Shown: piece after piece, positions 3,001 through 33,892 of the stretch | Layout of the letters: each line of letters begins with the position of its first letter | How positions within the stretch are numbered: position 1 is the first letter of the stretch | Virus record (IMG/VR): IMGVR_UViG_3300012933_000171 | Coordinates: 13,908-77,907 of that record | From: a virus | Taxonomy: Duplodnaviria > Caudoviricetes | DNA length: 64,000 bases | Strand: one strand, 5' to 3' | Made by a program: the position numbers and the translations under genes | Notes under the pieces: generated by a model | Told to the model about the DNA's origin: nothing | What the model saw: only the letters and a program-made list of their open reading frames with translations | Databases searched by the model: none

Positions 3001-6000
3001 TTAAAAATACATTGTTTACAGTGATATTGTCAAGTTATGTACCTTCCGAGAATAAGACAATGTTCTATATTGAGCAACAACCTGTGTTGATGGTTGGGTT
3101 AGAGAATGGTGTACCTACATACTTCCCTAATATCCCACTTGGCACAATGGTTTATAAAGTCTCATTCGATGATACTGCAACTTACACTGTTTCAACTAAA
3201 TCATATAACAGCACAACTGATAAGACTACTTTCTACGTAATGAGTAAGTTTACTCATAGTATTCCTAGTGGTTCTCAGTTATATGTTGCAACAATGAACT
3301 ACGAGTTAGTTGAAATTTTAGCTAACCCAGTGTCATATGTAGCTGGCGACCAGCTAGGTGCTAGTATCGCAACTAACTATGATGGTACGAAGCTGTTCAT
3401 CGGTGCTCCTAAGCACAACCAATCAGGTTCTCAAATTGCTACAGGACATATCTATGCGTTTGATAGACTAGCAGAATCATTTGAAGTACAAAGAGATGTA
3501 CCAAAGTCAAGCACACACTTGGTAATTCTACCATGGTACCCTGGCATTTCTGCAATGGTTTATAAAAACGGCAAGAGACTGCGTACTAACCAATACTTGA
3601 TTATCCTGAATGCAATTTATTTCGGACCAATTGGGTTTGACGCAGGTGACATTATCACAGTCAAGGATTCTAAAGTAGTTCAAACAGGAACATTTATCAA
3701 CGGTGCTCCCGAAGACTTGCGCTCAGGTCAGTGGTTCGGTTATTCTATGGACTGTTCTAGTGACGGTACAGAATTGATTGTTGGAGCTCCATATGCATTA
3801 ACTTCTGACGGTTACGAGGGTGCAGTCTATCGATTCACAGATCCAGGCAAACGCTATGGTATGTTAGTTGGGTCGACTCCTGCATCATTGAACGAACCCA
3901 CATACATACTCTTGAACGGATATCGTGTGAATGCGTTTGGTATTTCTAATATCACTACGACTGTAACTCAAAACTCTACTTCAGTGACTATCGATCCAAA
4001 CGAAGCAAAACTATTACCTGAATCTGGCGTGATTAGATTTGTTAAGTTTGCAGGGGACTCATATGATATTGCATATAGTTCAGTCAATGACACTACTGGC
4101 GTGATTACATTTAGCGTACCTTTCCCGTACAATGTAAGTTGCGCACCATCAACAAGTCAACTATACACACCATTAGGGGCAGCTACTAACATTGCTAACT
4201 GCATCAATAATTCAAATATTACAAACATATTTGCGTATGCAACTGAAGATAACAGATTAATTATTCGCTTGCGTGACATGTCGTTAGCACCTAGCATGAA
4301 CAAATTAAATCTAAGTGTGTTTAACGGTAACTTCTGGACAATGTTAGGTATGATGCCTTATCCAATGTCGCAAACTATTGTTGCTCCACATAAAGAGCAT
4401 CAAACACAGTTCGGTTTCGCAGTTAAGTATAATGAGGTGAATTCATTCGTAGTCGGTGCGCCGACAGCAACTAGATTTGCAGCTACACGTTTCGATTACA
4501 CAGATGAAACTACTGCACATACTGATACTGCCTTCGATAATAATATGATAATCTGGGAGGATTCTTTCACTCGTGCTGGTGCAGTCTACATGTACGACTA
4601 CATCGATTCATATGAAGAGGCGTTAGATAACATGGGCAAATATGTCTACTCTCAACCATGTAATGACATAACTAGTGCGTATGGATCCCACCCGATGTAT
4701 GGTGCTTCTGTTGATTTTACTAACAACAGAGTCATCATTGGCTCACCTGGTTTCGAATCTTTAGGTGGCAAAGTTACTATCTATAGAAATGACACTGGAA
4801 CACCTAACTGGTCTGTACATCGCTCATCTGAACAAGTAGTTGATATTAACAAAATAAGCAAGATCCAATTGTTCAATAACTCAACTAATGTAACTGAAGT
4901 CTCATTAGATTACTTTGATCCATTGCAAGGAAAATTACTAAGTGTTGTAGAATCGAACATCGATTTTGCCCGCTCTGTTGACCCTGCAGCATATAACAAT
5001 GGTAGCACTAATACTACGATTGCTTGGGGTAAAGACCACGTTGGTAAAATTTGGTTCAATACTGCGAACGTAAGATTCTATAATTACCATCAAGCTAATG
5101 ATGTTGCCTACAATAGTAAACACTGGGGTGTTCCGTTCCCAGGCAGCTCAGTCGATGTATATACTTGGGTTGAGAGTAGCACTCCACCTAACGAATACAC
5201 CGGTCCTGGCATAGTGTTAAACACTACACAATTTAGCGTGTCATTTACAACTGATTCGTCTGATGCATTGGTTGCAAAATACTATTTCTGGGTTAACGGT
5301 ACTAACATGCTTAGTTCAAAATTAGGCAAGACGTTGACCGACTCTGCAATCGCAACGTATATCAAATACCCACAAGAGTCTGGTGTACCTTTCGTTGCTC
5401 CATTACGCACTAATGTGTTTGGATTGTATAACTCATTAGATTTTATTCGAGGTGATGATACATTCATACACGTTGGTTTCAGTACGACCGACAGAGATGT
5501 TCGAGGTCACACTGAATTTAAGTTGATTAGTACAAATACAACTGAGTTCTTACCAGGATTACCTGATTTCAAGAAAGGTGTTTCAGAGCCTTACGGTCTA
5601 TACGCAAAATATGTTGACAGCTTTGCAGGTGAAGACGCTGCCGGTGCAACAGTACCTGATGCATCTTTACCAAAACTGATGCAAGTCGGCGTAAGCGTAA
5701 GACCAAGACAAAGCATGTTTGTCAATCGCTTGCTGGCGCTAAAGAACTTGGTTGAGTACACTAATAAAATTATCATCCAATTCCCAGTAGCAGAAACAGC
5801 TTCGGCTACATTCTTGCACTTCGCTACAGAAACTATCGACACTACAAAATATTGGGATTACTCATATTGGTGGGCAACGGGTTACTCTGAAAAGAATAGA
5901 CCTAAGTTTGAAGTTGAGTCGGTTGATATTTTGAAAACTATCGAACCAGTTGAGAATTTAATTGTGTCAGTCTCTAAGAATTCTAACGGAAACAGAGAAG

Positions 6001-9000
6001 TCTATGTAGTTCAGAATTCTGAATGGGTTCGTATTGGTTTAGAGAATGGAACTTATCAATTCTTATCTACTGTGTACGACTACGCACCAGAGGGTATTGG
6101 TTTCGGTAATGGTTTCTATGACTTAGAACTATACGACAACAACACTGCACAGGAGACTAGATATATTGTACGTGCAATCAATGAACAGCTATTTGTAGGT
6201 GACTTAGAAATCCACCGTAACAAGAGTTTGACATTGATGTTTGAATTCATTCAAAGTGAGAACATTGAATCTCATAACTATCTACCATGGTTGAATAAGA
6301 CAAAGTTTGCTGATGTTAACTACACAGTTCGCACGTTGAAACAAACTCCTAAGTATATAGCAGACGAGACTTCTTTAATCGAAGGGTATGTTAACGAAAT
6401 TAAACCGTTCAGCGTTGTTCTTAAAGAGTTTGTTGAAACATATAAAGTATCTGATGTAGTCAACGGTACAGCTACGGACTTTGATTTGCCGTCATACTAC
6501 GACTTTGAAGCAGGTAAATTTGTATCTCCTCAAGTTGTGTTCGGTGTATCTGCAAACGCAGAACAAAAAACAATCAACGACTCTGTTTGGGGAGACTATA
6601 GATACTTTGACTGGATTAGCAATTTAGGAATGGGCGTTAAGGGTGGAGAGGCTCAGCACATCACAAACTTGACTCAGTACATTAACGAGACCATGATTGA
6701 TGTTTATGTCGAAAATGCGTACACACTTCCTTATCAAGGTATCATGTACTTGGGCGCAGAACAAATCGGTTATACCAGTATCGACAGACAGCTTGGCAAG
6801 TTAACTGGAGTTTCTCGTGGTGTCAATAATACACCTCGTTCAGTACATCATGTAGGCACACCTATCTTTATGTATACACCTGATGTGTTTGTTTTAAACC
6901 CTGGTAAAAACTATCAACTCCCTCCAAAGATTACAGCGGTGATTGACACTACTGTTTACCCAGCCCCACGAAGCGAAGCATTATTCGAAGCCGTGATGCA
7001 AGCTGATAAAGTAGTAGCAGTAAAAGTAATTCAACCAGGTGAAGGTTATGTAACTACTCCTGAATTGATTGTCGAACCTAGCGCAACATTCACGTTTGAT
7101 AATTTTAGCACTGATACTCTTGGCGCTGATAATCTAATTGATGTTGCCAATAGTAAGTTAGTCACAACAGTTAATGTAACTGCTGATATTAGTTCATATG
7201 ATGTTGTAAAAGTTGAATCGGTCACTGACGGTGAGCCAGTAATTGCCGATGGGTTCTATTATGTAAAAGTATCAGAGAGCAGTGGAAGTTATGTACTTAC
7301 ATTCTTTGAAACATACAAAGATGCAAAAACTGATTCTAAAGGAATTCAGTTCAACAATACAGTAAAAACAGCTGGCTATGTACTGAACGTACATGTCACT
7401 GCACAACTAGTACCTACAATGAGAACTACTGGTGTTCGTGATTTGAAAACAACTATCAAATTTGACAGAGTTAGTTATTCAAGTAAAGTTAAAGAATGGC
7501 AACCAGGTTTATTCTGGTCAGCTCCTTACTCTAGTTTAGGTAACGATTCTTCTTCATCTGAAGAAAGTAGTTCTACAACAATCTTATCAAGCTCACAAGG
7601 TGTAGTGTTACCAATTAATGGTCTGCGTAATGATAACGGCTTTGCAGTCGTAGGATTTGACTACGCATACAGTAACATTAGCCCTGGGCAAATTGATAAC
7701 GCAATGCTGCAATTCTACAAAGTTACTCCTAGTTATACTCCATCGATTGTTGATGGAACAAACGGACGTGCTGAGATTCAAATCTTTAGACCAAAATTCG
7801 GTAACAACAAGTTATCAGAAGTGTACACTATTAAAGTAGTATCTCCGGGAACTATCTACACTAACGACTATGTAATTAGAATTAGTGGCTCAGAACTAGG
7901 TGGACAAGATGGTGTAAATGATGCGACTATTCTAATCAAGTATGCTGATGAAAACACTGGTGCGATTATAATTGCAACTGTATCAGGCAGAGCAGCCGGC
8001 ACATTTGATGAATTCTATGTTAAGCCAGTTAATAGCACAGAAGTTAACGTATACTCAGACCCGGCAATGATCCGTAGAGTACCATTCACATCATTCATTT
8101 GGAATGGTGCGTTGAATCTAACACAGGACTTCGGTGACGTAGGCAATGATTATGCTTACTTACCTGAACCAGTGTCTCACGATATCTTCTCGCAGCACGA
8201 GACTGTCTCGATAGTAACATATGCCGGAGTAATTTGGGCATGTAAGGAGAGTAATTTTGATGAGGTGTTTGACCCATCTAAGTGGACTCCGTTGACAACT
8301 GCCGACGTGTCAATGACAGCGTTGGAACGTATTGACGGATTCTATCAGCCAACAATTGGTATGGTTCCGAAAGACCATCAGCAATTATTAAAAGGCATTA
8401 CTTATCCAAACACTGTGTACTTTGGTAACAAGTTTGCACCTGAAGACGTTGTTGAAGAAGATGTAATCTTGACTGATAACTTGTTCACAAATAGCGAAGC
8501 TGATGTTAAGGGTGTAGTCTTTAACGGTACAAATTATGTCGCAGTCGCTACATGTGACGGACTAACGTTCGTGTTGACACAAACTGAGGTTGGCACATGG
8601 AAATCAACTAGAATTTCTCTACAAGAATTGCCAGTGACAAGTTTCTCTTATTCCGATGAAAAGTACGTAATCACTCTTGATGATGATACTAATCCACTAT
8701 TGGTTAGTTTTGATGGAGCTCGTTGGATCAGCTTAGGTGATAGAACTACTTACGATTCGTTAGATTTTGATGATGGTTCATATGATGACTCTACTTTACA
8801 AATTAGTTTAGGTGGCATTTTGAATTCCGCAACAGTGGATGGTGAGTTCATCACTGTCGGAAGTAAAATTGATGTATCATCTGGATGCTTAGTCTGGACA
8901 ACTACTCACTCAGTCGGTGATGCAATTAGAACATTTAATACTCTCAGAGATGTGGTATTCTTAGACACTGAGCAATATAAAGGATATGTTGCTGTAGGAT

Positions 9001-20226: not shown

Positions 20227-20772
20227 ATGAATTACAAAAATAACAGTTGGGATCATTTTGCTGTTTCATATTTGAACACATTTGGTACAGACGTTCCGGT
20301 ATATTCCCCCTCAATATACCGTGAATATCGTGGGGAAATCTTTACAACATATCATACAGACAAACACCCAGTTTCACAGGTTATACCGTCAAGAGCCAAT
20401 GTACACGGAAGGTTCTCGAAGTCGTATCAGAACGTCCTAAGGGGCTTACACTATGATACCAAGACTTGGAAACTAGTTCAAGCAGTAGTAGGGGACATTT
20501 ACTTAGTTGTACTTGACGTTAGAGAAGATAGCAAAACGTTAGGTAAATGGGAATCATATATTATCACGGAAAAGACACGTGACCAAGTATTAATTCCCCC
20601 GGGTTTTGCTAACGGGCACTATGCTCTTACTGACTGTATCTTCCACTATAACTTATTCTACGAGGGCGACTACGTAGACGAGAATCAGCAGGGCGTTATT
20701 AAGTATAATGACACACGATTCAACATCGAATGGCCTACAGATAAACCAACATTACAAAGACGAGACAGATGA
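20227..20772 (+). CDS. rmlC: dTDP-4-dehydrorhamnose 3,5-epimerase family (cupin)
   Basis: VLRGLHY, KLVQAVVGDIYLVVLDVR and IPPGFANGH motifs. Confidence 0.85.
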   Translation: MNYKNNSWDHFAVSYLNTFGTDVPVYSPSIYREYRGEIFTTYHTDKHPVSQVIPSRANVHGRFSKSYQNVLRGLHYDTKTWKLVQAVVGDIYLVVLDVREDSKTLGKWESYIITEKTRDQVLIPPGFANGHYALTDCIFHYNLFYEGDYVDENQQGVIKYNDTRFNIEWPTDKPTLQRRDR

Positions 20773-21395
20773 TTAACTTAGAACAATACCCTATCGTGCG
20801 TGACGCACAATATACCAAAGACGACTTGATTAATTTTGAGAATTTAATCGTAAGTCACTGGGAAAATGCTAAAATTAGAGGCCCAGTGCATCTATCTAGT
20901 AATAATGAAGAACAACTGATTGAGATATTCAAAAGAATTAAAACAACTGATTGGGTGTTTAGTAATTGGCGCAGTCATTACCATGCTTTATTAAAGGGAA
21001 TGGATCCTAGCTATATTGAGAATGAGATTCTTAACGGTAAGTCTATCAGCGTTTGTAACATTGATGAAAAGTTCTATAGCTCTGCTATTGTCGGCGGTAC
21101 TCTATCGATTGCTTTAGGAGTTGCTCAAGCTATTAAAAGTAACGGTCTGCCAGATAAAGTATGGTGCTTTGTGGGAGACATGAGTTTTGAGTCAGGAATC
21201 TTCTATGAAGTACACAAGTATGCACGTAACTTTGACTTACCGTTATACTTTATAGTCGAGGATAATGATGTTTCTACATACACACCCACTGTTGCAACAT
21301 GGGAAAAGAAACGAGAAATCCCCTCAGACGTTATTCACTATTCTTACAAAAGTAAATATCCTCACTATGGTTCAGGAAAATGGATCGCATTTTAA
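20769..21395 (+). CDS. ThDP-dependent dehydrogenase E1 alpha-like subunit
   Basis: GPVHLS, WRSHYHAL, and GDMS...EDN ThDP-binding motif. Confidence 0.85.
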   Translation: MINLEQYPIVRDAQYTKDDLINFENLIVSHWENAKIRGPVHLSSNNEEQLIEIFKRIKTTDWVFSNWRSHYHALLKGMDPSYIENEILNGKSISVCNIDEKFYSSAIVGGTLSIALGVAQAIKSNGLPDKVWCFVGDMSFESGIFYEVHKYARNFDLPLYFIVEDNDVSTYTPTVATWEKKREIPSDVIHYSYKSKYPHYGSGKWIAF

Positions 21396-22768
21396 AATTA
21401 GTATATGATAACTGGACTACTGATGGGTTCCCATTACCCAACGGTCGCCATCCACTCATTAACAAACTATTGCGTCAAGATATCAAAGAAAATCACAGAG
21501 AGTCTTGGTCACATGCACAAAACTATCTTAGTGAAAAGATAGAAGGAAACGCTTTTCTTTATGACCACTCTAATTTCTGGAGTTACTTTAAAAGATTTAA
21601 TAACAAAACAGAGATTGTAAGCCCTAATCAAGTCACTGATGACAATTCAGTGTATGTATGGCCTATCGAAGTTCGCACTGGTTTACATGATACACCAAAG
21701 AGTCACACTTTAGTTATTAATGGAAAAACAGATAGATATTCACTAAAGGATACTATTAGTCCTGAGTTACTAAAACTAATGAAGTTGGGTAAAGTTAAGA
21801 TAGCAATCAACTATGCACACGACCCGGCTAACAACATGAGAGATATCAAGGAAATCGAAGACTATTTTTCTAATTTAGGTATCTTGGGATCCAATATCTT
21901 TCTTATTCCTGGAAACGATTGTTCCCGTGAGTACAAGTTAGCAAACCCTAAGGCTAAACTACATATCACCGCAACTAAATTATTAATGTGCCAGCAGCTT
22001 GCAGCAGAAATACAGTCATTTCCGTGTGTGACCTCTTTGGGATATGTATCAGATATTGTACGAGAGAGTGACTTAGACCAATCAGTAATAAGACCTAAAC
22101 GATTTTTGTGTTTTAATAGAACCATGCGCCCACATCGTTACATATTGGGTTATATGGCATTAAAATTAAATCTGTTAGATAATAGTATCTTTAGCTTTTT
22201 GAATAAGTTTGATTATAATGTCGAGTCAGTTCTTAATGAACTTGAAACCTTTGAGTTCAGTGATAGTAATGACTTTTCTAAGGCTCTACATGATTTGATT
22301 CCATACGAATTAGATACTCAGCATTTATCACAAAATGAACGTCAAGGATTTAACTCAGCTAACAGTAAACAATCTTGGTTCAAAGACACTTATCTTCATA
22401 TAACTAGTGAGACTAGGTTTATAGAAGGTGAGACACCGTTTGTATCAGAAAAGACTTGGAAACCAATTGCCAATCTTCAACCCTTTGTTATGGTTGGGAA
22501 TCATCATACTCTTAGTTATTTAAAAGAGTTAGGGTTCAAAACATTCAGTCCGTTTATTGATGAATCATATGACGAAATCACGGACTATAAACTTCGCATG
22601 AAGCATATCTATAGTGAAATCGAACGATTAAACAATATGCCAATACAAGAGCTACATGATTGGTATTACTCTATTAAAGATGTTCTATTACACAATCAAC
22701 AATTATTAATGACTATGAGTTCATTGAACCCATACGAAGAAACATTCACATACTTAAAAGGAAATTAA
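21380..22768 (+). CDS. Putative glycosyltransferase, paralog of 18786..20216
   Basis: FLCFNR..RPHR; SET...SEKTWKPIANLQPF...LGFKTFSPFIDESYD. Confidence 0.5.
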   Translation: MDRILKLVYDNWTTDGFPLPNGRHPLINKLLRQDIKENHRESWSHAQNYLSEKIEGNAFLYDHSNFWSYFKRFNNKTEIVSPNQVTDDNSVYVWPIEVRTGLHDTPKSHTLVINGKTDRYSLKDTISPELLKLMKLGKVKIAINYAHDPANNMRDIKEIEDYFSNLGILGSNIFLIPGNDCSREYKLANPKAKLHITATKLLMCQQLAAEIQSFPCVTSLGYVSDIVRESDLDQSVIRPKRFLCFNRTMRPHRYILGYMALKLNLLDNSIFSFLNKFDYNVESVLNELETFEFSDSNDFSKALHDLIPYELDTQHLSQNERQGFNSANSKQSWFKDTYLHITSETRFIEGETPFVSEKTWKPIANLQPFVMVGNHHTLSYLKELGFKTFSPFIDESYDEITDYKLRMKHIYSEIERLNNMPIQELHDWYYSIKDVLLHNQQLLMTMSSLNPYEETFTYLKGN

Positions 22769-23752
22769 ATGGAATTCAAAAACAAAACAGTAGTAATTAC
22801 TGGCGCTAATGGTTTAGTGGGTCTACCTACTGTAAAGAAGTGTTTAGCTGAGGGTGCATCTAAAGTGTACGCAGTAGACATTAAGATTGGTAATGAGTTA
22901 CTAGCACTTCAGAATGATAATCCTAACTTGGTTATCGTTAATAAAGACTTAACTTACTTAACTAACTGCGAAGATTTGTTTGCAGGGGAGAAGATTAACA
23001 TTGTACTCCATATTGCGGGTATTAAGGGTTCCCCCGCACGTAGTTCTAAGCAACCGTGCGATTATCTATTCCCCATGCTTATGTTTAATACAAACATGAT
23101 TAAGGCAGCGTTTGATGCCAAAGTTGATTGGTTTGTATATCTATCTAGTGTTGGAGTATATCAGCCAGCAGAATTAATGCGTGAAGACGATGTATGGGTC
23201 ACAACTCCTAGTAAGAACGATTGGTATCCTGGCTGGACAAAACGTATGGGTGAAGCTACACTAGAATCATTGACTGTACAGTACGGTTGGGATAACTGGA
23301 CAGTAATTCGTCCTAGCAATATCTACGGTACAAACGATAACTTTGCAGAAGATGCAACCGTTATTAGTACGAATATCTGGAAACTATACAATGTGCCCGG
23401 AGATGATATTGTATGCTGGGGTAACGGTTCTGCACGTAGAGACTTTGTATTCGGTGATGACGTTGCCCAAGCTACTATTGACGTAGTTAAGAAAGAAGTC
23501 AAAGACATTATTAACTACGGATGTGGAGAAGCAGTATCTATTAAAGAAACAATTGAAACAATTGTGGAAACATTTAAAGAAATATCCGGAAAACAGTTGA
23601 CAATTGTATGGGATGAGAGTAAAATGAACGGAGATCCTGTTCGCTGTTTAGATGGAACTCGCCAAGCAAAGTATGGCATTGTCCCTCAAACTACTCTTAA
23701 AGAGGGTATCAAGCGTTCAATGATTGCATACAAAGAAAGACTTGGCAAATGA
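22769..23752 (+). CDS. NAD-dependent sugar epimerase/reductase (GDP-fucose synthase-like extended SDR)
   Basis: TGANGLVG, RPSNIYG and WGNGSARRDF motifs. Confidence 0.85.
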   Translation: MEFKNKTVVITGANGLVGLPTVKKCLAEGASKVYAVDIKIGNELLALQNDNPNLVIVNKDLTYLTNCEDLFAGEKINIVLHIAGIKGSPARSSKQPCDYLFPMLMFNTNMIKAAFDAKVDWFVYLSSVGVYQPAELMREDDVWVTTPSKNDWYPGWTKRMGEATLESLTVQYGWDNWTVIRPSNIYGTNDNFAEDATVISTNIWKLYNVPGDDIVCWGNGSARRDFVFGDDVAQATIDVVKKEVKDIINYGCGEAVSIKETIETIVETFKEISGKQLTIVWDESKMNGDPVRCLDGTRQAKYGIVPQTTLKEGIKRSMIAYKERLGK

Positions 23753-24741
23753 AAAAGACAGACAGAATATTAGTAACAGGTGCAAGTGGATTTATTGGAT
23801 CCAACATATTGCGTGTGTTATATCAGCAAGGTTTTACGAACCTAGTAGCAAATTCAATGACTCGTGACTTGCGAAACGATTTTCCCGGTTGTGAAACTAT
23901 TAAACTAGTTAAGGGTGATTTAAACAGTGAGGCATTTTGCAAGAGCCTCACTGAGGGCATCGATGTTGTAATTCATGGTGCAGCTAACACAAGCAATGCA
24001 CTAGATACTAAGTTTAATCCATTACTACATGTCACTCCTAACGTGACAATGAACACTATTTTAATGGAACAATCTTGGATTAATAAAGTACGCAAGTTTA
24101 TCTTTATTAGTACAGCTAACGTTAACGGAGACTTGGGTGAAGTTTATGCTGTAGAAGATCCAAACTTTATGAATATGCCCCTAGTTCCTGTATATAAAGC
24201 AGTTGGGGCTATGAAAAGATTTGGAGAAATGATGTGCGATTTCTTTAGTAATCAAATTCATGACCCAATGCAGTGTATTATTATTCGTCCTAGCAATGCG
24301 TTCGGACCTAATGACAAGTATGACTTTGAAAAATGTCACGTTACCCCTGCAAATATTCGCAAAGTGGCAGACGGATTAAACCCCATCCCAGTATGGGGTG
24401 ACGGTACTGAGATTCGTGACGTACTACATGCTGACGATATGGCTGGTGGCATTGTCTATGTTGCAGAACACGTTGACAAATACGATATCTATAACGTTAG
24501 TTACGGAGAAGGTTTCAGTGTGAATCAATTGCTTGAGTGGATGAAAGAAGCAGATAATAACACTAACCCAATTGAATACGTGAATAACAGAGCGCCCATG
24601 ATTCCTGTTCGATTAGTTTCTAATGAGAAATTAAAACAATTGGGCTGGAAGCCAAAGCGTGAGATTAAAGAAGCATTGAAAGATACTATTGAATGGTATC
24701 GCTCACACAAAGACCAATTTGATCCTAATTCTAAGCCATGA
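23749..24741 (+). CDS. NAD-dependent sugar epimerase/reductase (GDP-fucose synthase-like extended SDR)
   Basis: TGASGFIG, RPSNAFGP, HVTPA and WGDGTEIRD motifs. Confidence 0.85.
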   Translation: MKKTDRILVTGASGFIGSNILRVLYQQGFTNLVANSMTRDLRNDFPGCETIKLVKGDLNSEAFCKSLTEGIDVVIHGAANTSNALDTKFNPLLHVTPNVTMNTILMEQSWINKVRKFIFISTANVNGDLGEVYAVEDPNFMNMPLVPVYKAVGAMKRFGEMMCDFFSNQIHDPMQCIIIRPSNAFGPNDKYDFEKCHVTPANIRKVADGLNPIPVWGDGTEIRDVLHADDMAGGIVYVAEHVDKYDIYNVSYGEGFSVNQLLEWMKEADNNTNPIEYVNNRAPMIPVRLVSNEKLKQLGWKPKREIKEALKDTIEWYRSHKDQFDPNSKP

Positions 24742-25676
24742 GTAAAGTTTTAATTACCGGGGGAGCAGGATATCTTGGCTCCACACTAGCAGAATATCTA
24801 TTAATTAATGGATACGAAGTCACAATATTAGACAATCTAATGTACAAGCAATTGTCAGTACTACACTTGTTCAAACGTGATAAGTTTAAGTTCATTAAGG
24901 GTGACGTTAGAAACACTACAATGTTGCAGAAACTAGTAGAACAGCATGACGTTATTATCCCCTTAGCAGCTATTGTGGGTATGCCCGCGTGTAGAGATAA
25001 CCCTCAACTAGCAATTGACGTTAACTATATTCACATTAAGAACATTGTAGACGTATTACGTGATGACCAGAAACTAATCATCCCTAATACTAATAGTCAA
25101 TATGGCTCTAGCCCGGATATCATCACAGAAGAATCACCATTTAAACCATTGAGTTTATATGCTGAAACCAAGTGCAACGCAGAAGCATGTGTGCTACAAA
25201 AGGGTAACGGCGTTGTATTACGTTTAGCTACTGTATTCGGAGTAAGCCCAAGAATGCGTCAAGACTTACTGGTAAACGACTTTACTTACAAAGCAGTGAC
25301 AGATGGTTATCTAGTTTTATTTGAGGGTCACTTCAAGCGTAACTATATACATGTACAGGATATTGCTAGAACCTTTCAGTTCATCATTGAAAACTATGAA
25401 CAGTGTAGAGGTGAAGTATATAATGTGGGACTATCTAGTGCTAACTTGAGCAAACTTGAGTTAGCTCAGACGATTAAGAAGTATATTCCAAAATTAGTTA
25501 TTAAAGAGGATGAATTTAATAAAGACTTTGACCAGCGTAATTATATTGTCTCTAACGAGAAATTAGAGAGTTTGGGATGGAGTCCTAGATTTGATATTGA
25601 TTATGGGGTCAAGCAACTAATTGAAAGCTATCAGTTAATCACAACAGTAAACAACACAAATTTCACAAACCTATGA
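24738..25676 (+). CDS. NAD-dependent sugar epimerase/dehydratase (extended SDR)
   Basis: TGGAGYLG, catalytic YAETK, RLATVFGVSPRMR. Confidence 0.9.
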   Translation: MSKVLITGGAGYLGSTLAEYLLINGYEVTILDNLMYKQLSVLHLFKRDKFKFIKGDVRNTTMLQKLVEQHDVIIPLAAIVGMPACRDNPQLAIDVNYIHIKNIVDVLRDDQKLIIPNTNSQYGSSPDIITEESPFKPLSLYAETKCNAEACVLQKGNGVVLRLATVFGVSPRMRQDLLVNDFTYKAVTDGYLVLFEGHFKRNYIHVQDIARTFQFIIENYEQCRGEVYNVGLSSANLSKLELAQTIKKYIPKLVIKEDEFNKDFDQRNYIVSNEKLESLGWSPRFDIDYGVKQLIESYQLITTVNNTNFTNL

Positions 25677-26134
25677 GCAAAAACAAACAACCAAAACAAC
25701 GTAGATACATTCAGACATTGAGCGAATTGATTGACCGTCTTTCAATCGTTCAATTAAAAGAAGTGTTTATTTCAGAGCATAAAGAGATGTATGCACAGGA
25801 GATTAGCGATATCGTACATGATATTCAGATTATCCTAGACGAATCTGACGCAGTATTAGATGCTGAAACTATCCGTGCTATTATTGTATGCTCACAGATG
25901 AACTTACATATCTGGCACAACGAGAGTAATTACCGTCGTGGTATCAAAGATGGAAACAACTTAGAACTAACACACGGATTGAACGGTATTCGTAATACTA
26001 GTAAGAACATTATCCAAGAAGTTATTGGTGGGCGTAAAGATTATAAAGTAGACTGCTTAGCCGCAGACTTTAAAGACTGGGAAATCAGTTGGAATCGTGA
26101 CGTATCTAAAGATAACAAGCCATCAACACCATGA
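25673..26134 (+). CDS. Helical hypothetical protein (DUF4254/DUF6165-like) in the glyco locus
   Basis: TLSELIDRLSI...IWHNE pattern. Confidence 0.45.
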   Translation: MSKNKQPKQRRYIQTLSELIDRLSIVQLKEVFISEHKEMYAQEISDIVHDIQIILDESDAVLDAETIRAIIVCSQMNLHIWHNESNYRRGIKDGNNLELTHGLNGIRNTSKNIIQEVIGGRKDYKVDCLAADFKDWEISWNRDVSKDNKPSTP

Positions 26135-26670
26135 CTAAACCACAAACTACCCTGTACAAGGACGAATTGACACGAGCAATGACGTTCTTGGGACAACAAG
26201 ATAACACAATCTTTATTGGACAACAGATTGTCTATGCAGGAAACCCTATGAGTACTACACTTACTGAGGTTTCTAAAGACAAGATGATTGAATTACCCGT
26301 CATGGAAGAAACACAAATGGGTATGAGTCTGGGATTAGCAATGGTGGGTAAGACTGTTATTAGCTTTTACCCACGTTGGGACTTTATTATCTCAGCAACT
26401 AATCAAATGGTTAATCACTTAGACAAGTATGAATCAATGACTGGTAAACAAGCTAATGTCATTGTTCGTTTGGGTAAAGGTTCTGACACCCCGTTAGATC
26501 CGGGCGTACAACACAAGAATAGTTATTTGGATGAGTTTAAGTCTATGTGTAAGAACATTACATTCCATGACTTACAAACGTCCGAAAACATTTACGAAAC
26601 TTATATTAATGCGTATAATCAAGGTGGAGTTCACGTTATTGTAGAATATCCACAAAAGTATTTTGAATAA
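26131..26670 (+). CDS. ThDP-dependent E1 beta/transketolase pyrimidine-binding-like subunit
   Basis: ELPVMEETQMGMSLGLA, NQMVNH and GVQH motifs. Confidence 0.85.
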   Translation: MTKPQTTLYKDELTRAMTFLGQQDNTIFIGQQIVYAGNPMSTTLTEVSKDKMIELPVMEETQMGMSLGLAMVGKTVISFYPRWDFIISATNQMVNHLDKYESMTGKQANVIVRLGKGSDTPLDPGVQHKNSYLDEFKSMCKNITFHDLQTSENIYETYINAYNQGGVHVIVEYPQKYFE

Positions 26671-26774
26671 TGTTTAAAAAACTATACGATTTAACAATCG
26701 GGAAATTGATAAAAGAGTACCGATATCGTAAACGCTTGAAAGAGTTACGGGGACGAGATCCCTTTATCTATTAA
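26670..26774 (+). CDS. 34-aa peptide (MFKKLYDLTIGKLIKEYRYRKRLKELRGRDPFIY)
   Basis: TAATG coupling to the upstream stop; ends 1 nt before the carbamoyltransferase ATG. Confidence 0.65.
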   Translation: MFKKLYDLTIGKLIKEYRYRKRLKELRGRDPFIY

Positions 26775-26775
26775 T

Positions 26776-28266
26776 ATGAATTATATTGGTATCAGTTGCG
26801 GGTTTCACGATGCCGCAATATCCGTCGTCAGTGACAAGGGTGAAGTACTATTTGCTGACCATTCAGAACGTCATAGTAAAATCAAGCACGACAAAGAGTT
26901 GTGTGAAGGTTTAATACAAGAAGCATTGAAACACGCAGGTAGTGACTATGAACTTCACTTCTATGAAAGACCAGTAAAGAAGTTCTTGCGTAGACTACGT
27001 GCAGGGGAGAAACCCTCACTATCTTCAATGTTCACTTGTATGAATATTGGATTAAAGAATACCAAACTGTTACGTAACGGTAAGTATCGTACTCTACACA
27101 CGCATGACCATCACAAGACTCATGCGGCATCAGGGTTTCAAACTAGCCCCTACGATGATGCAACTGTAGTAGTGATTGATAGTATCGGAGAGTTTGAAAC
27201 TATCACTATATGGGATGCTACATACGTTAATGGCATCGCACAGTATAAGAAGATATATAGTCAGACATATCCTGATTCAATTGGATTGTTCTATAGTGCT
27301 ATGACTAAACGTGTAGGACTCAAGCCCCTAGATGAAGAATATATCTTAATGGGTATGAGTGCTTATGGCAACCCAACACATGCATCCAAAATGTATAGCG
27401 ACTTTATCGAAGATGCAGTAGAATTAAAGTTTAGAGAGAACTTGCATGTTGGTGTACCTGATGATTATCTAGAGGGTGCCGATATTATGGATATTGCTAA
27501 TTCTAGTCAACTGGTAGTTGAGCATTTGATTGACAAAGTAATATTAAAAGCTAGACTATTAGGTAAGAGCAAGAACCTAGTATATAGTGGTGGAGTAGCA
27601 TTAAATTGTCTTGCTAACAGAAACTTAGGGAAATACTTTGAACAAATATGGATTATGCCTAATCCCGGTGATGCTGGGAGTAGCCTTGGCGCTGCCTGTC
27701 TGGCTTATGGGGGTAAAGTTAACTGGAACAATAGTTATCTTGGGTTTGATATTCATGGTGATTATCCTGTTGATGACTTACTTAATGAGTTGCTTACTAC
27801 ACAAATTGTGGGAGTGGCTTCCGGGCGAGCCGAATTCGGACCTAGGAGTCTTGGAAACCGCTCGTTACTTGCTGACCCCAGAAGAAAAGAAATCAAGGAA
27901 AAAGTAAATGACATTAAACGTAGACAACAATATAGACCCTTTGCGCCAGTTATTCTGGAAGAGTTGGTTCATCAGCATTTTATCATGCCTAGTAATTGGG
28001 ATAACAGTCGGTATATGCAAGTCGTCAGTACTTGCAGGCATCCTGACTTATTTCCTGCTATCGTTCATCATGACGGGACTAGTCGTGTCCAAACTGTCCC
28101 GAACGACGGATCGGGAATAAGAAAACTCTTAGAAGCATGGTATAAAGAAACGGGCTGTCCTATGTTACTTAACACAAGTTTGAACATTAGAGGTGAGCCA
28201 ATGGTTAACGATAGATATGATGCAGATAGATTTGAAACTATGTACGGAGTGAAAGTTTGTAGCTAA
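26776..28266 (+). CDS. O-carbamoyltransferase (NodU/CmcH/TobZ family)
   Basis: HDAA, HHKTHAAS, SGGVALNC, EFGPRSLGNRSLLADP, RPFAP and LLNTSLN motifs. Confidence 0.93.
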   Translation: MNYIGISCGFHDAAISVVSDKGEVLFADHSERHSKIKHDKELCEGLIQEALKHAGSDYELHFYERPVKKFLRRLRAGEKPSLSSMFTCMNIGLKNTKLLRNGKYRTLHTHDHHKTHAASGFQTSPYDDATVVVIDSIGEFETITIWDATYVNGIAQYKKIYSQTYPDSIGLFYSAMTKRVGLKPLDEEYILMGMSAYGNPTHASKMYSDFIEDAVELKFRENLHVGVPDDYLEGADIMDIANSSQLVVEHLIDKVILKARLLGKSKNLVYSGGVALNCLANRNLGKYFEQIWIMPNPGDAGSSLGAACLAYGGKVNWNNSYLGFDIHGDYPVDDLLNELLTTQIVGVASGRAEFGPRSLGNRSLLADPRRKEIKEKVNDIKRRQQYRPFAPVILEELVHQHFIMPSNWDNSRYMQVVSTCRHPDLFPAIVHHDGTSRVQTVPNDGSGIRKLLEAWYKETGCPMLLNTSLNIRGEPMVNDRYDADRFETMYGVKVCS

Positions 28267-30006: not shown

Positions 30007-30102
30007 ATGACGTACTTATTTTGGATAGTCATCGCAGGATTAGTTGGTGGAGCCATCTATTGGATAATGGATTGGAAGAAGCAATTTCCTGACGGTGAAT
30101 GA
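30007..30102 (+). CDS. 31-aa single-TM membrane peptide (MTYLFWIVIAGLVGGAIYWIMDWKKQFPDGE)
   Basis: ATG 5 nt after TAAATA; hydrophobic stretch followed by KK. Confidence 0.5.
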   Translation: MTYLFWIVIAGLVGGAIYWIMDWKKQFPDGE

Positions 30103-30106
30103 TTAT

Positions 30107-30480
30107 TGCTGTATGAAGCGGATAGAAAAGTGTTCTGGACGCGGGTTCGACTCCCGCCAGGTCCACCATAAAGCATACTAGTCGGCGACTAAGCGTATTG
30201 CACGGTCTCTTCGGAGTGAAAGGGTCAGTGGTTCGATTCCACATAGTGTGTTTTATAATGGGCCTGTCATGGTTTCGACAGGGCAACAAGTAAGTAAGTG
30301 GACAGCACGGGAATGTGAAACCCGTAGGATTGGGGGTAAGAGTACAGTAATGTCATGTCAATATGATATCAGTATTTCCCGGTCGCAGAAGCAAAAAACT
30401 TAAATGCAAATGACGAAAGTTACGCATTGGCCGCTTGATAAAAGCGTCCTGGGGTAAGACATACCTCGCAACAGAAACTC
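30107..30480 (+). ncRNA. ssrA: Circularly permuted (two-piece) tmRNA, tag ANDESYALAA
   Basis: The 3' acceptor part GACGCGGGTTCGACTCCCGCCAGGTCCACCA ends at 30168, upstream of the 5' part GGGCCTG starting at 30260. The acceptor stem has G3-U70. Helix-2 pairs are CAGGGCA/TGTTCTG and ACAGCA/TGCTGT. The tag frame is 30406-30438. Outer ends are approximate. Confidence 0.93.
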
Positions 30481-30510
30481 AGAAAAGGCTCTTCGGAGCC
30501 TTTTTCTTTG
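30481..30510 (+). terminator. Intrinsic terminator after the tmRNA
   Basis: AAAAGGCTC-TTCG-GAGCCTTTT then T-rich tail. Confidence 0.9.
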
Positions 30511-30555
30511 TCAACGTAATGTAAGGCAAAGGCGTTGTATATATAAGGAGCTTAT

Positions 30556-31557: not shown

Positions 31558-32103
31558 ATGAAAACAATCGGCGATAAAATCACAAGTTTTGCAGTCACAG
31601 GCGTTAAGCCAGGCGCACTCACACCAGATGGCGCATTCGAAACAATTACTGAAAAGAGTTTTGAAGGCAAGTGGAAAGTAATTGTTTACTACCCAAAGGA
31701 CTTCACATTCGTGTGCCCAACTGAAATCGTAGCATACGACAAATTGAATGGCGACTTCGCAGACCGCGATGCTGTTCTAATGATTGGCTCTACTGATAAT
31801 GAATTCTGTAAGTTGGCATGGCGTAATGCACATGAAGACTTGAAGAAGACTAACTCATGGTCATTCGCAGACGTGGCACGTGATGAGAACAGCTTGGCAG
31901 AACAATTGGGTATCTTCTATGGTCCAGCAGGTGCGGCACTTCGTGCAACATTCATCGTTGACCCAGACAACATCATCCAACACGTTACAGTCAACAACTT
32001 GGACGTTGGTCGTAACCCAGACGAAGCATTGCGTGTACTTGACGCATTGCAAACTGGCGAGTTGTGCCCATGCTCACGCCCAATCGGTGGAGAAACATTG
32101 TAA
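31558..32103 (+). CDS. ahpC: Peroxiredoxin (alkyl hydroperoxide reductase C)
   Basis: YPKDFTFVCPTE, GRNPDE and ELCP motifs. Confidence 0.95.
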   Translation: MKTIGDKITSFAVTGVKPGALTPDGAFETITEKSFEGKWKVIVYYPKDFTFVCPTEIVAYDKLNGDFADRDAVLMIGSTDNEFCKLAWRNAHEDLKKTNSWSFADVARDENSLAEQLGIFYGPAGAALRATFIVDPDNIIQHVTVNNLDVGRNPDEALRVLDALQTGELCPCSRPIGGETL

Positions 32104-32621
32104 TGACTGCTTGGGTAGACGCACTTAAAGAGTCTAGTATTCCTGACTATGCTAAGGATACTAAACTAAACATTGACGCTGTAATTAAGCGTAGTACTCT
32201 ACCTGTTGAAGAAGCGGAAGCTGTTGCCCTCGCGGCAGCTTTTGCTACTGGCAACAGTAAGTTGTGGACTTGGATGGAAAGTCAAATTGAAAACAAGACT
32301 GAAACACAAGCCGCATTAACAGCAGGTGCATTGATGGCACAAAACAACATGTGGTATCCATTTGTTGAAATGGCTGACGATGAGAACTTGAAGGGCTTGC
32401 CCGCACAACTTCGCATGAACGCTATCACAACAAGCGGTGGCACAACTAAAGAACGATTTGAAGCATATTCATTGGCTGCAAGTATCGTTGGTAAGTGTCA
32501 CTTCTGTGTGAAAGCACACTACGAAGGATTGAAGAAGATGGGCTACACTGTAGAACAACTTCGTGATATCGGTCGCATTGCAAGTGTCATTAATTCAGTA
32601 GCAAAAGTGGTAGCAAACTAA
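32103..32621 (+). CDS. ahpD: Alkylhydroperoxidase D
   Basis: IPDYAKDTKLN, MAQNN.WY and SIVGKCHFCVKAH motifs; start reassigned to the TAATG-coupled ATG at 32103. Confidence 0.92.
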   Translation: MTAWVDALKESSIPDYAKDTKLNIDAVIKRSTLPVEEAEAVALAAAFATGNSKLWTWMESQIENKTETQAALTAGALMAQNNMWYPFVEMADDENLKGLPAQLRMNAITTSGGTTKERFEAYSLAASIVGKCHFCVKAHYEGLKKMGYTVEQLRDIGRIASVINSVAKVVAN

Positions 32622-32622
32622 A

Positions 32623-33015
32623 ATGGCAAACATGGCAGAGTACTTTGAAAAGAATCGTTATCATGGCTCATATGAGTTCGGTGAACGAGTTTTCGGTTAT
32701 TACAATAAGATTCCTTTCATTGGCTCTGTCGGTAGTGACAGTGTAAGGAGTATGGATGAAGGTCCTATCATCACTGTCACACTTGATTTGCCCATTAGTG
32801 TTGATGGACAATCAAAAAATGTTATAATTGTAAAACACAAAGACATTAAATCTTTGTTGAGAGATTACGATGCGTCGGGAGTTCCAAAGGCCGGAGCGAC
32901 TGATTCTAAACCAGTAGGTAGTGGGTTCAATTCCCATCCGACGCACCAAGAACAACCAAAGTCTAATAGTAAATCACTGTTAGAAAACTTAAAGAAACTT
33001 AAAGGTAAAAAATAA
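32623..33015 (+). CDS. Hypothetical protein whose 3' part overlaps a tRNA gene
   Basis: 130-aa ORF; its stop overlaps the next ATG. Confidence 0.6.
   Translation: MANMAEYFEKNRYHGSYEFGERVFGYYNKIPFIGSVGSDSVRSMDEGPIITVTLDLPISVDGQSKNVIIVKHKDIKSLLRDYDASGVPKAGATDSKPVGSGFNSHPTHQEQPKSNSKSLLENLKKLKGKK
32801..32828 (+). promoter_or_regulatory. Putative internal sigma70 promoter for the tRNA
   Basis: TTGATG-16-TATAAT with extended -10 (TGtTATAAT), 43 nt upstream of the tRNA 5' end. Confidence 0.5.
32872..32948 (+). tRNA. Amber suppressor tRNA (anticodon CUA)
   Basis: Acceptor GCGTCGG/CCGACGC, discriminator A, encoded CCA. D-stem GTTC/GAGC. Anticodon arm ACTGA-TT CTA AA-CCAGT. T-arm GTGGG-TTCAATT-CCCAT. 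Confidence 0.85.
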
Positions 33016-33260
33016 TGGATATGGATAATGCGGCAGTTTTCTTAGCCGGTACAATCTTATATGCTATTGGTTTGATTGTGATTCTAGCAGCCACTATCTT
33101 CGCAAACAACTTGATTCACAAATATTGGAAATCATTTGGCTGGTCATGGTTCCCTGCATTCTTGCAACACGATGCACCGAGATTCATGTCACCGGAAGAA
33201 GCTGCAAAGATTGACCCATCGGTAGATCCAATCAGCGGTGAAAAGCATAAACCAAAATGA
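33015..33260 (+). CDS. Membrane protein with an N-terminal TM helix
   Basis: 81 aa with a hydrophobic N-terminal segment. Confidence 0.65.
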   Translation: MDMDNAAVFLAGTILYAIGLIVILAATIFANNLIHKYWKSFGWSWFPAFLQHDAPRFMSPEEAAKIDPSVDPISGEKHKPK

Positions 33261-33281
33261 TTTGTACGGGGCACATGCCCC

Positions 33282-33289
33282 TATAAATA
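33282..33289 (+). promoter_or_regulatory. T4-type late promoter TATAAATA
   Basis: Exact T4 late consensus, preceded by a GGGGCA-CA-TGCCCC inverted repeat. Confidence 0.65.
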
Positions 33290-33316
33290 CAATGTCATAA
33301 CTTAAGGAGAACCAAA

Positions 33317-33892
33317 ATGACACAACAATAGATTGAATACGCATGTAAAGATGTAGTGTTCCACTTTAACAAGGCACACTTACAAGACGAGACCATTCCA
33401 ATGTGGGTCTTAAAATCACATGGAGAAACCTTTTATGTTAATCATGTGGAATGCAATGTTCCGTGGAGTACGAAAGAGACCCCTGATAACCCAAGTACAA
33501 AAGGTAGCATCAAAGTCAAGAATGTATTATTGACGATTGATCCAGACAACAACGCAAACTTAACCAAGCTAACTGTTTTTGATAAAGTACGATTACGCAA
33601 CCAGAAGATGGGCATTACTCGTATTATGTTCTTGCCTAACTCTGACATTCACACTGCATTATTAGAAGACAAACTAAAGCATGGACCAATGAAACGAATT
33701 ACTGCACCTTGTACTACAGCATACATTGTGTGTGACTTGCTTGATAAAGCAGAGGCTACATTCGCTACATTGAAGTATGACACTTTCAGAGTACTACAAC
33801 CTAACGATAGCTACTACCAACGATATGACGAAGACAAAGACCACATCAGTCCTGACTACTCGGATAAAGACACCCCGTATGAGTACAGTTAA
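33317..33892 (+). CDS. Hypothetical protein with in-frame TAG at codon 5 (MTQQ*IEYACKDVVFHFNK...), 191 aa if read through
   Basis: AAGGAGA RBS (33304-33310), ATG at 33317, TAG at 33329-33331, in frame with the track ORF 33356..33892. Confidence 0.75.

Follow-up and report, generated by a model that had tools for sequence, protein, structure and literature searches.

Recoding of stop codons in gut phages is reportedly the subject of work by Peters et al. For such phages, Borges et al. describe stop codons that are recoded together with suppressor transfer RNAs (tRNAs) and that, in the accessible part of their preprint, are proposed to regulate particular genes (bioRxiv 10.1101/2021.08.26.457843). 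The present analysis concerns a freshwater giant phage, from which a stretch of 64,000 nucleotides (nt) was analysed (IMG/VR record IMGVR_UViG_3300012933_000171, 77,907 bp; positions 13,908–77,907 of that record; hereafter the window). It contains a tRNA with the anticodon CUA, tRNA(CUA), and downstream of it a gene whose fifth codon is an in-frame TAG, here called the gate. The pairing of an early-UAG gene with tRNA(CUA) is kept in more than 100 related phages and looks like a natural translational switch of a single gene.

What this lineage shares with the recoded gut phages (crAss-like, Lak, Agate and Jade), as the accessible parts of the literature portray them, is a phage tRNA(CUA) that would make an in-frame TAG readable in a host with the standard code. 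The two differ in extent. In the recoded phages, according to the same partial sources, in-frame stops occur in many genes, which frequently make up entire late or lysis modules, and the codon has mostly ceased to serve as a stop; here there is one gate per genome, always at codons 2–10 of one operon and physically linked to the tRNA, and other genes still end with TAG. Suppressor tRNAs without an assigned target have been noted in jumbo phages. XacN1 carries two CUA tRNAs, and the readthrough of 18 amber stops at gene ends identified no target genes in the part of the report that is accessible (PMC5852040). In Atu_ph07, a UCA suppressor was noted, for which the accessible part of the report names no target and in which stops are viewed as gene ends (PMC6102473). 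As far as these partial sources go, both resemble the phages studied here: they are jumbo phages that combine an otherwise standard code with a peptidyl-tRNA hydrolase gene and a tRNA whose anticodon is CUA or UCA. Instead of the gene ends considered there, in-frame stops shortly after gene starts are proposed here as candidate targets, among them the one in the Atu_ph07 peptidyl-tRNA hydrolase gene (PTH2) itself.

Early stops that control the gene in which they lie are also known from bacteria. The gene of RF2, prfB, is autoregulated through an early in-frame UGA that is passed by a +1 frameshift, so that the gene senses its own product. As in prfB, the output of a termination-related gene would here depend on the recognition of an early in-frame stop that needs to be bypassed, and conserved coding continues behind it in frame 0; unlike in prfB, the frame is unchanged and a dedicated tRNA is predicted to read the stop. 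Minigenes of the lambda bar type consist of a Shine-Dalgarno (SD) sequence, an AUG, a few codons and a stop, and they load the cell with short peptidyl-tRNAs that Pth recycles. The leader of the gated gene has the same composition, and the gated gene of sister clades is a peptidyl-tRNA hydrolase, but the mini open reading frame (ORF) is here in frame with a conserved protein through the stop. A synthetic counterpart is, for example, an engineered feed-forward loop in which an early amber codon is combined with a co-expressed suppressor tRNA (PMC7969014); in the accessible part of that work, the pair serves as an AND-gate or leak damper, and the difference is that such switches are synthetic, whereas the present one is natural and widely conserved in phages. 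Literature searches, outside the scope of which lay subscription journals and supplements, found no description of such a gate.

Conservation of the early in-frame TAG

An earlier note on this DNA had pointed to a complete, CCA-ending tRNA(CUA) and, about 370 nt downstream, to a gene with TATAAATA, AAGGAGA and the start ATG ACA CAA CAA TAG, and both stand as described. The ATG lies 369 nt downstream of the 3' end of the tRNA, and all features of the gene are on the plus strand. As read from the sequence, a GC hairpin (GGGGC-ACAT-GCCCC; 33268..33281) directly precedes TATAAATA (33282..33289), which we take to be the T4-type late-promoter consensus; a hairpin-like 'ggggc...gcccc TATAAATA' also occurs in three relatives (L009, L010 and L013). 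These elements are followed by the SD sequence AAGGAGA (33304..33310), 6 nt before the ATG, by the four-codon leader ATG ACA CAA CAA (MTQQ; 33317..33328) and by the gate (33329..33331), whose next base is A. Behind the TAG, the frame continues with ATT GAA and stays open to the TAA at 33890–33892, which gives 191 residues with the TAG at codon 5. Conservation and a structure model place an all-beta N-domain, the 'FHFNK' domain and core of the family, at 33332..33574; according to the model, a C-terminal part follows, then an acidic tail and the TAA (33575..33892).

Among IMG/VR relatives, 313 stretches encode homologues, and the best 80 of these 313, with 13 earlier loci, gave the 84 loci that were examined. 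The FHFNK motif was located by script in 82 of them; L055, which was read by eye, has the variant motif FAFNK and begins ATG AAA TAG ATA GAG..., and L007 is cut by a contig end, leaving 83 analysable loci. This first set holds 69 distinct sequence contexts, the window included. In all 83 loci, TAG is the stop that comes first in frame when one reads upstream from the motif; TAA, TGA or a sense codon never takes this place. The TAG is preceded by ATG plus 1–8 codons in the 82 motif-bearing loci; counted over distinct contexts, the leader comprises 1–9 codons including the ATG (two codons in 40/69, three in 8, four in 14), with the gate always at codons 2–10. The leaders differ in sequence (MK, MA, MS, MQ, MTQQ, MSQQ, MTDLNPIAI and others), and an SD-like motif stands before the leader ATG in 68 of the 69 contexts.

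The codons behind the TAG behave as coding sequence. Over the nine post-TAG codons, for which 65 contexts were usable, the amino acids are kept by synonymous change: Ala is encoded by GCA (19), GCT (37) or GCG (5), Lys by AAA (27) or AAG (30), and Asp by GAC (22) or GAT (34). The GTG at 33356 of the window, at or after which homologues might have started according to the earlier note, is a variable Val codon in the relatives (GTG 37, GTC 24, GTT 3, GTA 1), and no ATG, GTG or TTG lies between TAG and motif in 28 of the 69 distinct contexts. Because of the synonymous variation, the variable Val codon and the contexts without a canonical start, the post-TAG stretch is taken to be translated and the GTG not to be the start. 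Many database N-termini read 'M..Q-IEYACK', with Q at the place of the TAG, probably as a result of code-15 gene calling; other database copies start at the GTG or a later Met (the GTG or the Met of PMW in P0013, P0014, P0041 and P0075).

The TAG at 33329–33331 is unchanged in the covering contigs of four public runs from three studies (two DNA studies, two RNA-library runs), which together with the 83 loci answers the concern about a read error raised in the earlier note. Loose ends of the covering contigs show relatives with the leader ATG GCA TAG. Two contigs from the RNA libraries (X15 and X16) contain the gated gene; their RNA-library origin does not show transcription, and that they do not align over the tRNA stretch is uninformative.

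The gate also extends to cultured phages. A tblastn search against these returned four records, with Rhizobium phage RHph_I1_18 as the best, and homology begins at residues 9–11, upstream of codon 14. The RHph_I1_18 homologue is unannotated and reads TATAAATA..., ribosome-binding site (RBS), ATG AGT GAG TTC ATG TAG AAC GAA TCG TGC...; behind the TAG, none of the codons ATG, GTG and TTG precedes the motif. The same position is thus gated in proteins down to about 56% identity and in this 171-kb rhizobiophage.

The tRNA(CUA) and its linkage to the gated gene

The tRNA of the window (32872..32948, plus strand; found by ARAGORN and by Rfam RF00005) is of the elongator type, with the anticodon CUA, an encoded CCA, the acceptor pairs G1-C72, C2-G71 and G3-C70, and A73. 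It is the only tRNA that ARAGORN finds in the window, with the anticodon cta at position 35 of the tRNA (32906–32908). RF00005 scores it at 45.3 bits (E 2e-06; gathering score 29) with the full model covered, and it is the sole Rfam tRNA match in the 77.9-kb contig. Its anticodon arm agrees with a cloverleaf, with the 7-nt loop UUCUAAA, U33, CUA at 34–36 and a purine at 37. The 65 related tRNA(CUA) amount to 52 distinct sequences, and 53 sequences were aligned. Fifty-one of these have G1-C72/C2-G71/G3-C70, A73 and CCA, the exceptions being those of L016 and L017; compensatory changes occur in 12 of the 16 predicted pairs, and CTA is invariant. On these two grounds the comparison indicates that tRNA(CUA) is under selection.

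Initiator tRNAs of the fMet type have an unpaired 1-72 and three G-C pairs that close the anticodon stem. In the aligned tRNA(CUA), G1-C72 is paired in 52/53 and the anticodon-stem pairs vary (AU, UA, GU), and because of the paired G1-C72 the tRNA is classed as an elongator and not as initiator-type. Position 8 of the window tRNA is G, as read from the letters, and its innermost anticodon-stem pair is A/C, flagged as non-standard by Rfam. From this G8 and the A31-C39 mismatch, the earlier note had suspected a weak or tuned suppressor; both positions vary among the 53 sequences and therefore say little about strength.

There is no near paralogue of tRNA(CUA) among the 45 tRNAs of a complete relative (G001, 364,247 bp), where the highest identity is 69%. 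The acceptor end GCG...CGC-A73 also occurs in the G001 tRNA-Leu(UAG, UAA) and tRNA-Val(GAC), which is a lead only. In the Sinorhizobium phage Phosso (169971–173142; L170), tRNA(CUA) lies between an annotated cysteinyl-tRNA synthetase and a short 'serine-tRNA synthetase', a possible lead to its charging. PF00749 (Gln/Glu-type synthetase) has no match in G000, G001, G003 and G004, other synthetase families not having been searched.

Tight linkage joins tRNA and gated gene. A tRNA(CUA) lies on the same strand within 3 kb, the distance criterion for linkage, in 64 of the 84 loci, never on the opposite strand, so that the co-occurrence proposed as a check in the earlier note is found. Its 3' end stands 27–2898 nt upstream of the TAG, or its start about 574–809 nt downstream of it, and it is usually the sole tRNA at the locus; in RHph_I1_18, it begins 12 nt after the stop of the gated gene. 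Among the loci without a tRNA(CUA) within 3 kb, the whole records of four were checked, and three of these have one 4.4–8.5 kb off on the same strand. A wider sample of more distant relatives (159 loci, 153 with the motif, 114 distinct contexts), which partly overlaps the first set, contains 94 contexts that are gated by rule, 68 of them with tRNA(CUA) within 3 kb, and 20 that are ungated by rule, 13 of them with tRNA(CUA). In G001, the 45 tRNAs form one cluster at 225.7–240.9 kb, and tRNA(CUA) (363408–363482) and a transfer-messenger RNA (tmRNA) stand apart from it, at a distance of about 120 kb, beside the gated gene. In that cluster ARAGORN also reports three 77-nt 'tRNA-Leu' without a long variable arm (226772–226848, 231700–231776 and 234298–234374) and one tRNA with a four-base anticodon (tttc; 227532–227606).

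Upstream of the window tRNA, a sigma-70-like match (TTGATG-16-TATAAT, with TG before the -10; 32801..32828, plus strand) agrees with the consensus in 10/12 positions and ends 44 nt before the tRNA, which may hint at a promoter. The region has three sigma-70-like sites, compared with 4.8 expected in shuffles, and because this count is below the shuffles, the match is not evidence of function. A 130-codon ORF (32623–33015, plus strand) without a Pfam or PHROG match runs through the tRNA gene, which makes up its codons 84–109. It is probably a chance extension, because no more than 8 of 52 distinct contexts have tRNA(CUA) within a long ORF of the same strand. If the tRNA were excised from a shared transcript, the mRNA upstream would be left without a stop codon.

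Stop codon usage and the search for other in-frame TAGs

Stop use was counted in greedy ORF sets. Over all 74 ORFs of the window's contig, there are 53 TAA, 20 TGA and 1 TAG, the last ending a doubtful ORF of 48 amino acids (aa), and over the 58 ORFs of at least 100 aa there are 43 TAA, 15 TGA and no TAG. The figures for G001 are 274 TAA, 219 TGA and 41 TAG (534 ORFs) or, at 100 aa and above, 188 TAA, 134 TGA and 14 TAG (336 ORFs), and those for RHph_I1_18, again at 100 aa and above, 87 TAA, 81 TGA and 15 TAG (183 ORFs). Clear TAG-ended genes exist in G001, for example 150344–150745 and 159636–160079, and the genes that follow have their own RBS and ATG. The base after genuine TAG stops (A 4, T 6, G 2 and C 2 in G001; T 5, C 4, A 2 and G 4 in RHph_I1_18) provides no clear contrast with the gate.

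The statement of the earlier note that no other in-frame TAG is evident was extended to the whole contig. A readthrough scan found a TAG in 19 of 80 greedy ORFs, and the gate remained the one credible in-frame case. The sequence was inspected for the 5293-codon ORF only and the rest were judged from coordinates, by which the others are 5' over-extensions, short ORFs or overlaps. The apparent 'TAG at codon 6' of the 5293-codon ORF lies upstream of the real ATG and marks an ordinary gene boundary.

In G001, a pattern scan (SD-ATG, at most 10 codons, stop, at least 80 open codons) returned one TAG, two TAA and one TGA; the single TAG match is an ordinary boundary with an ATG right after the TAG, and two same-frame ORF pairs are ordinary gene boundaries as well. 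The G001 scans thus gave no second short-leader TAG gene and no long ORF with a credible internal TAG, and they could not register the gated gene itself, because it spans the record ends. Of the marks of a code-15-type genome, the phage tRNA(CUA) is present, whereas many in-frame TAGs and the loss of TAG as a stop are not found. Judged from these counts, the gate belongs to a single gene and is not a code change, with TAG rare as a stop yet in use.

The gate on PTH2 in sister lineages

Eleven of the contexts that are ungated by rule form a clade of short, 82–87-aa FHFNK proteins. In all eleven, tRNA(CUA) is followed by a gene of the form M-x(-x)-TAG-(I/V)...KLRVVTRRDL..., and this by the FHFNK gene, the stop of the upstream gated gene overlapping the FHFNK ATG (ATGnnTAA), so that the two are translationally coupled. 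The upstream gene was tested in four of these loci and is PTH2 in each (Pfam PF01981, cut-off 23 bits), with the match starting 4–7 residues past the TAG. Six gated ORFs of the sister lineages pass PF01981, with 72.8 and 73.6 bits and, in the four tested short-clade loci, 31.8, 31.0, 30.8 and 29.7 bits. L258 and L307 have a similar gated upstream ORF with a PTH2 score of 19.1 bits or none, L226 and L291 have an M-x-TAG leader farther upstream though they are ungated by rule, and L213 and L222 are cut short upstream. A rule under which the first cistron of the (PTH2)-FHFNK unit opens with a few codons and a UAG fits nearly all cases.

Phosso and the Agrobacterium phage Atu_ph07 represent another arrangement, in which FHFNK is the ungated C-terminus of a 173–176-aa protein two genes downstream of PTH2. 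The PTH2 gene of Phosso reads AGGAGA-ATG AAG TAT TAG GTT... (MKY-TAG), with the Pfam match from residue 45 and the annotated Met at 55; a solitary tRNA(CUA), annotated as 'tRNA-OTHER', lies 4.4 kb upstream of it. In Atu_ph07, PTH2 reads ATG ATT GGC GAA CAC TTT TGA ATT... (MIGEHF-TGA), with the match from residue 30 and the annotated Met at 40; tRNA(UCA) is present, and CUA is absent among the 30 tRNAs read. In both phages, the Pfam domain reaches 10 residues beyond the annotated Met on the N-terminal side, and the stretch from the stop to this Met contains no canonical start. The type of stop therefore pairs with the anticodon, TAG with tRNA(CUA) in Phosso and TGA with tRNA(UCA) in Atu_ph07. 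The PTH2 gate is lineage-specific, because the PTH2 genes of Xoo-sp13 and RsoM2USA start with an ordinary ATG. No Pfam PTH2 was found in the gated protein of the window (P0001), and no PF01981 in G000, G001 and G004.

The PTH2 start of Xoo-sp13 (179402–179806; L182) is annotated too far downstream, an SD and ATG 105 nt (35 codons) upstream restoring the N-terminus of the domain, which is an ordinary mis-annotation and not a gate. At one locus (L219:1832 and L219:2637), both the tRNA(CUA) gene and the amber-gated PTH2-like ORF occur twice, and the first of these gated ORFs is open for 262 codons, as if by insertion or fusion. In L212, L216, L217, L339 and L210, a mini-ORF of the form M-x-TAG-(I/K)-x-x-x-P-(P/T)-TAA, for example MK-TAG-ILNKPP, MR-TAG-IIRAPT or MT-TAG-IRGPT, lies downstream of the short FHFNK gene and a tRNA-Cys; this recurrent mini-ORF may be a further amber-dependent leader, for a downstream gene.

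The gated FHFNK protein

The family of the gated protein is large, with 1310 of 1338 candidates at E ≤1e-3 in a set of 5.8 billion proteins; among the 120 matches listed, none has a Pfam domain or is called anything other than 'hypothetical protein'. It is essentially a phage family. In 185,579 species genomes only five matches were found, all on contigs of metagenome-assembled genomes, and since these belong to unrelated taxa, they carry no host signal. Pfam and PHROGs gave no informative match for the gated protein, a profile search against PDB sequences (best E 0.26) and a Foldseek search of the whole model against the PDB (best E 1.1e-02) were uninformative, the best ESM Atlas score of 0.89 is under the lead level of 0.9, and in BFVD only uncharacterised proteins were matched.

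The model of the whole protein has a predicted local distance difference test (pLDDT) score of 80.4, and the all-beta N-domain alone reaches 92.3; searched alone, this domain gave a best VIA Z of 3.6 and a best Foldseek E of 0.47 (PDB), which are uninformative. The C-terminal part is modelled as beta-alpha-beta-beta-alpha-beta, a ferredoxin/ACT/RRM-like arrangement (best VIA Z 5.4, residues 82–169) that would represent a common fold arrangement only. The FHFNK domain occurs by itself in RHph_I1_18 and the short clade and forms the C-terminus in Phosso and Atu_ph07. The invariant residues of the family include many His, Lys, Asn, Thr, Glu and Asp, which suggests a binding or catalytic site.

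Neighbouring genes

A permuted (two-piece) tmRNA with the tag ANDESYALAA lies 2.4 kb upstream in the window (30059..30507, plus strand; Rfam beta_tmRNA 116.9 bits, tmRNA_permuted 115.9 bits; 30076–30529 according to ARAGORN). tmRNA is also found in 21 of the 84 related loci, in RHph_I1_18 and, in G001, about 0.9 kb upstream of tRNA(CUA). It adjoins the module and does not belong to the gate.

RF1, RF2, tmRNA and SmpB are known from huge phages, according to the accessible part of the report on them (PMC7162821). In the present lineage, G001 and G004 encode a protein with an RF-1 domain, which scores 195.8 bits with the NCBIfam RF1 profile (107–333 of 347) versus 115.5 with prfB and is N-terminally truncated (L353:1438–2106, minus strand, corresponding to about 221.1–221.8 kb of G001; L354 in G004). 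In both genomes, the gene has a conserved in-frame TGA after '...SKLG', with both flanks conserved. From the sequence, this TGA looks like a second single-gene stop gate, on a release factor; ARAGORN finds no tRNA(UCA) in G001.

Just upstream of the window tRNA, genes for an AhpC/TSA peroxiredoxin (31558–32103, plus strand; 82.5 bits) and a CMD/AhpD-like protein (32064–32621, plus strand; 42.9 bits) overlap. Farther away, an ORF of about 5290 codons (3–11378 of the window, plus strand), whose start in the contig corresponds to window position -4503, starts with MTNRVRTLDFLPEIF. A run of genes at 20227–28266 (plus strand) encodes a dTDP-sugar epimerase, three NAD-dependent epimerases/dehydratases and a carbamoyltransferase, which suggests sugar or DNA modification.

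Proposed mechanism and alternative explanations

Three things are observed: the gate is conserved, it is linked to the tRNA, and the type of stop matches the anticodon. They are best explained by a two-part translational switch of the phage, and we consider it probable that tRNA(CUA) and a first cistron with an early UAG form such a suppression-dependent gate. One part would be a dedicated elongator tRNA with the anticodon CUA, which we infer to be charged and to read the gate, and the other a transcription unit whose first cistron begins with an SD-AUG, 1–8 sense codons and an obligatory UAG. A ribosome that starts at the leader AUG would meet the UAG almost immediately. Where RF1 wins, only a peptide of 2–9 residues would be freed, and where charged tRNA(CUA) wins, the ribosome would read on to the 191-residue FHFNK protein; output would depend on how much active suppressor tRNA there is relative to RF1 activity, with the rest of the genome in standard code. 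In the sister lineages, the same gate would act on the PTH2 gene whose stop overlaps the FHFNK start. As to its purpose, our best guess is that the gate ties the PTH2/FHFNK rescue-termination proteins to the timing and degree of active amber suppression, a coupling that is favoured because the gate controls PTH2 in sister clades and adjoins tmRNA. A bolder version, possible though doubtful, is a termination-control circuit that reprograms UAG and perhaps UGA. It would comprise tRNA(CUA), the amber-gated PTH2/FHFNK operon, tmRNA and, in complete relatives, the UGA-gated truncated RF1 homologue, with FHFNK as a new enzyme or adaptor that acts on peptidyl- or aminoacyl-tRNA or on RF1, and the gate as a sensor.

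Several observations weigh against a suppression-dependent gate. Within 3 kb, tRNA(CUA) is missing from 20 of the 84 first-set loci and from 26 of the 94 gated contexts of the wider sample, and none was found in the fetched pieces of G005 (48% complete). Three family members have no gate (L262, L265 and L269, the last still with a tRNA(CUA) 189 nt upstream), and L357 has an ordinary ATG start, its flanks not having been scanned for a gate. The covariation of stop and anticodon is that of one pair of phages. TAG still ends some phage genes (14/336 in G001 and 15/183 in RHph_I1_18), whose products an efficient suppressor would lengthen. In the first set, all 65 nine-codon contexts have Ile directly behind the TAG (ATT 61, ATC 3, ATA 1), and AUU can serve as a weak start codon. 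On the side of purpose, neither sequence nor structure searches gave the FHFNK protein an informative family, fold or named relative.

The uniform Ile speaks for the main rival, termination and reinitiation without the tRNA, in which the mini-ORF ends at the TAG and the ribosome restarts at AUU, AUC or AUA; Ile would then be the first residue of the protein, and tRNA(CUA) would serve some other function. In infC, translation starts at AUU, and L307, L258 and L291 have an ATG exactly at the TAG position, giving M-IELACKDVV. A stop-restart would, however, tolerate TAA or TGA, and TAG alone is found in the 83 loci. The post-TAG codons of the wider sample, moreover, are often not start-like (AAC in RHph_I1_18, ACT, AAA, GTT and CCC), as in MT-TAG-TELACK, MA-TAG-KVELACK and MLA-TAG-PVNAK. 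Neither the tight same-strand linkage of tRNA(CUA) nor the match of TGA/UCA and TAG/CUA in Atu_ph07 and Phosso would be explained, and we regard reinitiation as unlikely. That the TAG is instead an artefact (sequencing error, minor allele or pseudogene lesion) in an ordinary gene that starts at the GTG at 33356 or a later Met is scarcely credible. Some database calls do start there, but the TAG recurs in every analysable locus and in the contigs of the four runs, the residues between TAG and GTG are conserved with synonymous variation, only 37 of the 65 contexts have GTG as the Val codon, and the homology to cultured phages begins before codon 14.

Two further explanations accept that the TAG is read and differ on why. 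The earlier note had allowed for an early stage of code reassignment, and the gene might be the first or the last with an in-frame TAG in an early or residual genome-wide change towards code 15. The rarity of TAG as a stop (1/74 and 0/58 in the window's contig, 14/336 in G001) fits such a change, as does the model, set out in the accessible part of the preprint by Borges et al., in which stop depletion is followed by the gain of a suppressor and then by in-frame stops (bioRxiv 10.1101/2021.08.26.457843). Yet one fixed position is gated over deep divergence, including a rhizobiophage that ends 15 of 183 genes with TAG, real TAG-ended genes occur in G001 without further in-frame TAGs in the scans, and a gate that always lies at codons 2–10 speaks for function and against stops that built up by chance. 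Drift towards a code change is disfavoured by this fixed, stable position, and we consider reassignment very unlikely. The gate may also be real with another purpose, either timing, with an early tRNA licensing a late gene, or lock-in, with a UAG in an essential gene making indispensable a tRNA that mainly reads TAG stops of host and phage. The sigma-70-like match before the tRNA and TATAAATA before the gene would suit timing in the window, a suppressor would also act on host TAG stops, and the tmRNA and RF1 homologue of the lineage fit a global manipulation of termination. Against this, no more than 9 of 69 distinct contexts have TATAAATA in the 100 nt before the TAG, so the label of a late gene given in the earlier note does not carry over to the family. 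The promoter count is not above that of the shuffles, and in many loci a gap of 27–180 nt separates the end of the tRNA from the gate, both on the same strand, an arrangement that suggests co-transcription and not separate timing. Both purposes together appear quite unlikely. The suppression-dependent gate is thus retained, and with it the local switch of the earlier note, supported by the invariant TAG, the linked tRNA and the TAG-ended genes of G001; its weak suppressor and late gene find no support here, its code reassignment is judged unlikely, and it had missed the wider module of PTH2, tmRNA and RF1 homologue.

Significance

The gate would be a natural regulatory use of nonsense suppression on a single gene, stable over wide divergence, and it would link suppression to peptidyl-tRNA hydrolysis and ribosome rescue. 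Gene calling is systematically affected, the gated gene being missing from the annotation of RHph_I1_18 and truncated in those of Phosso and Atu_ph07, and these three cultured phage-host pairs make the gate directly testable. For the orphan suppressor tRNAs of jumbo phages with the standard code, the analysis names a concrete class of candidate targets, namely a first cistron with a matching early stop. Should the termination-control circuit be true, these phages would possess a natural, evolvable stop-codon switch, which would account for orphan suppressor tRNAs across the jumbo phages.

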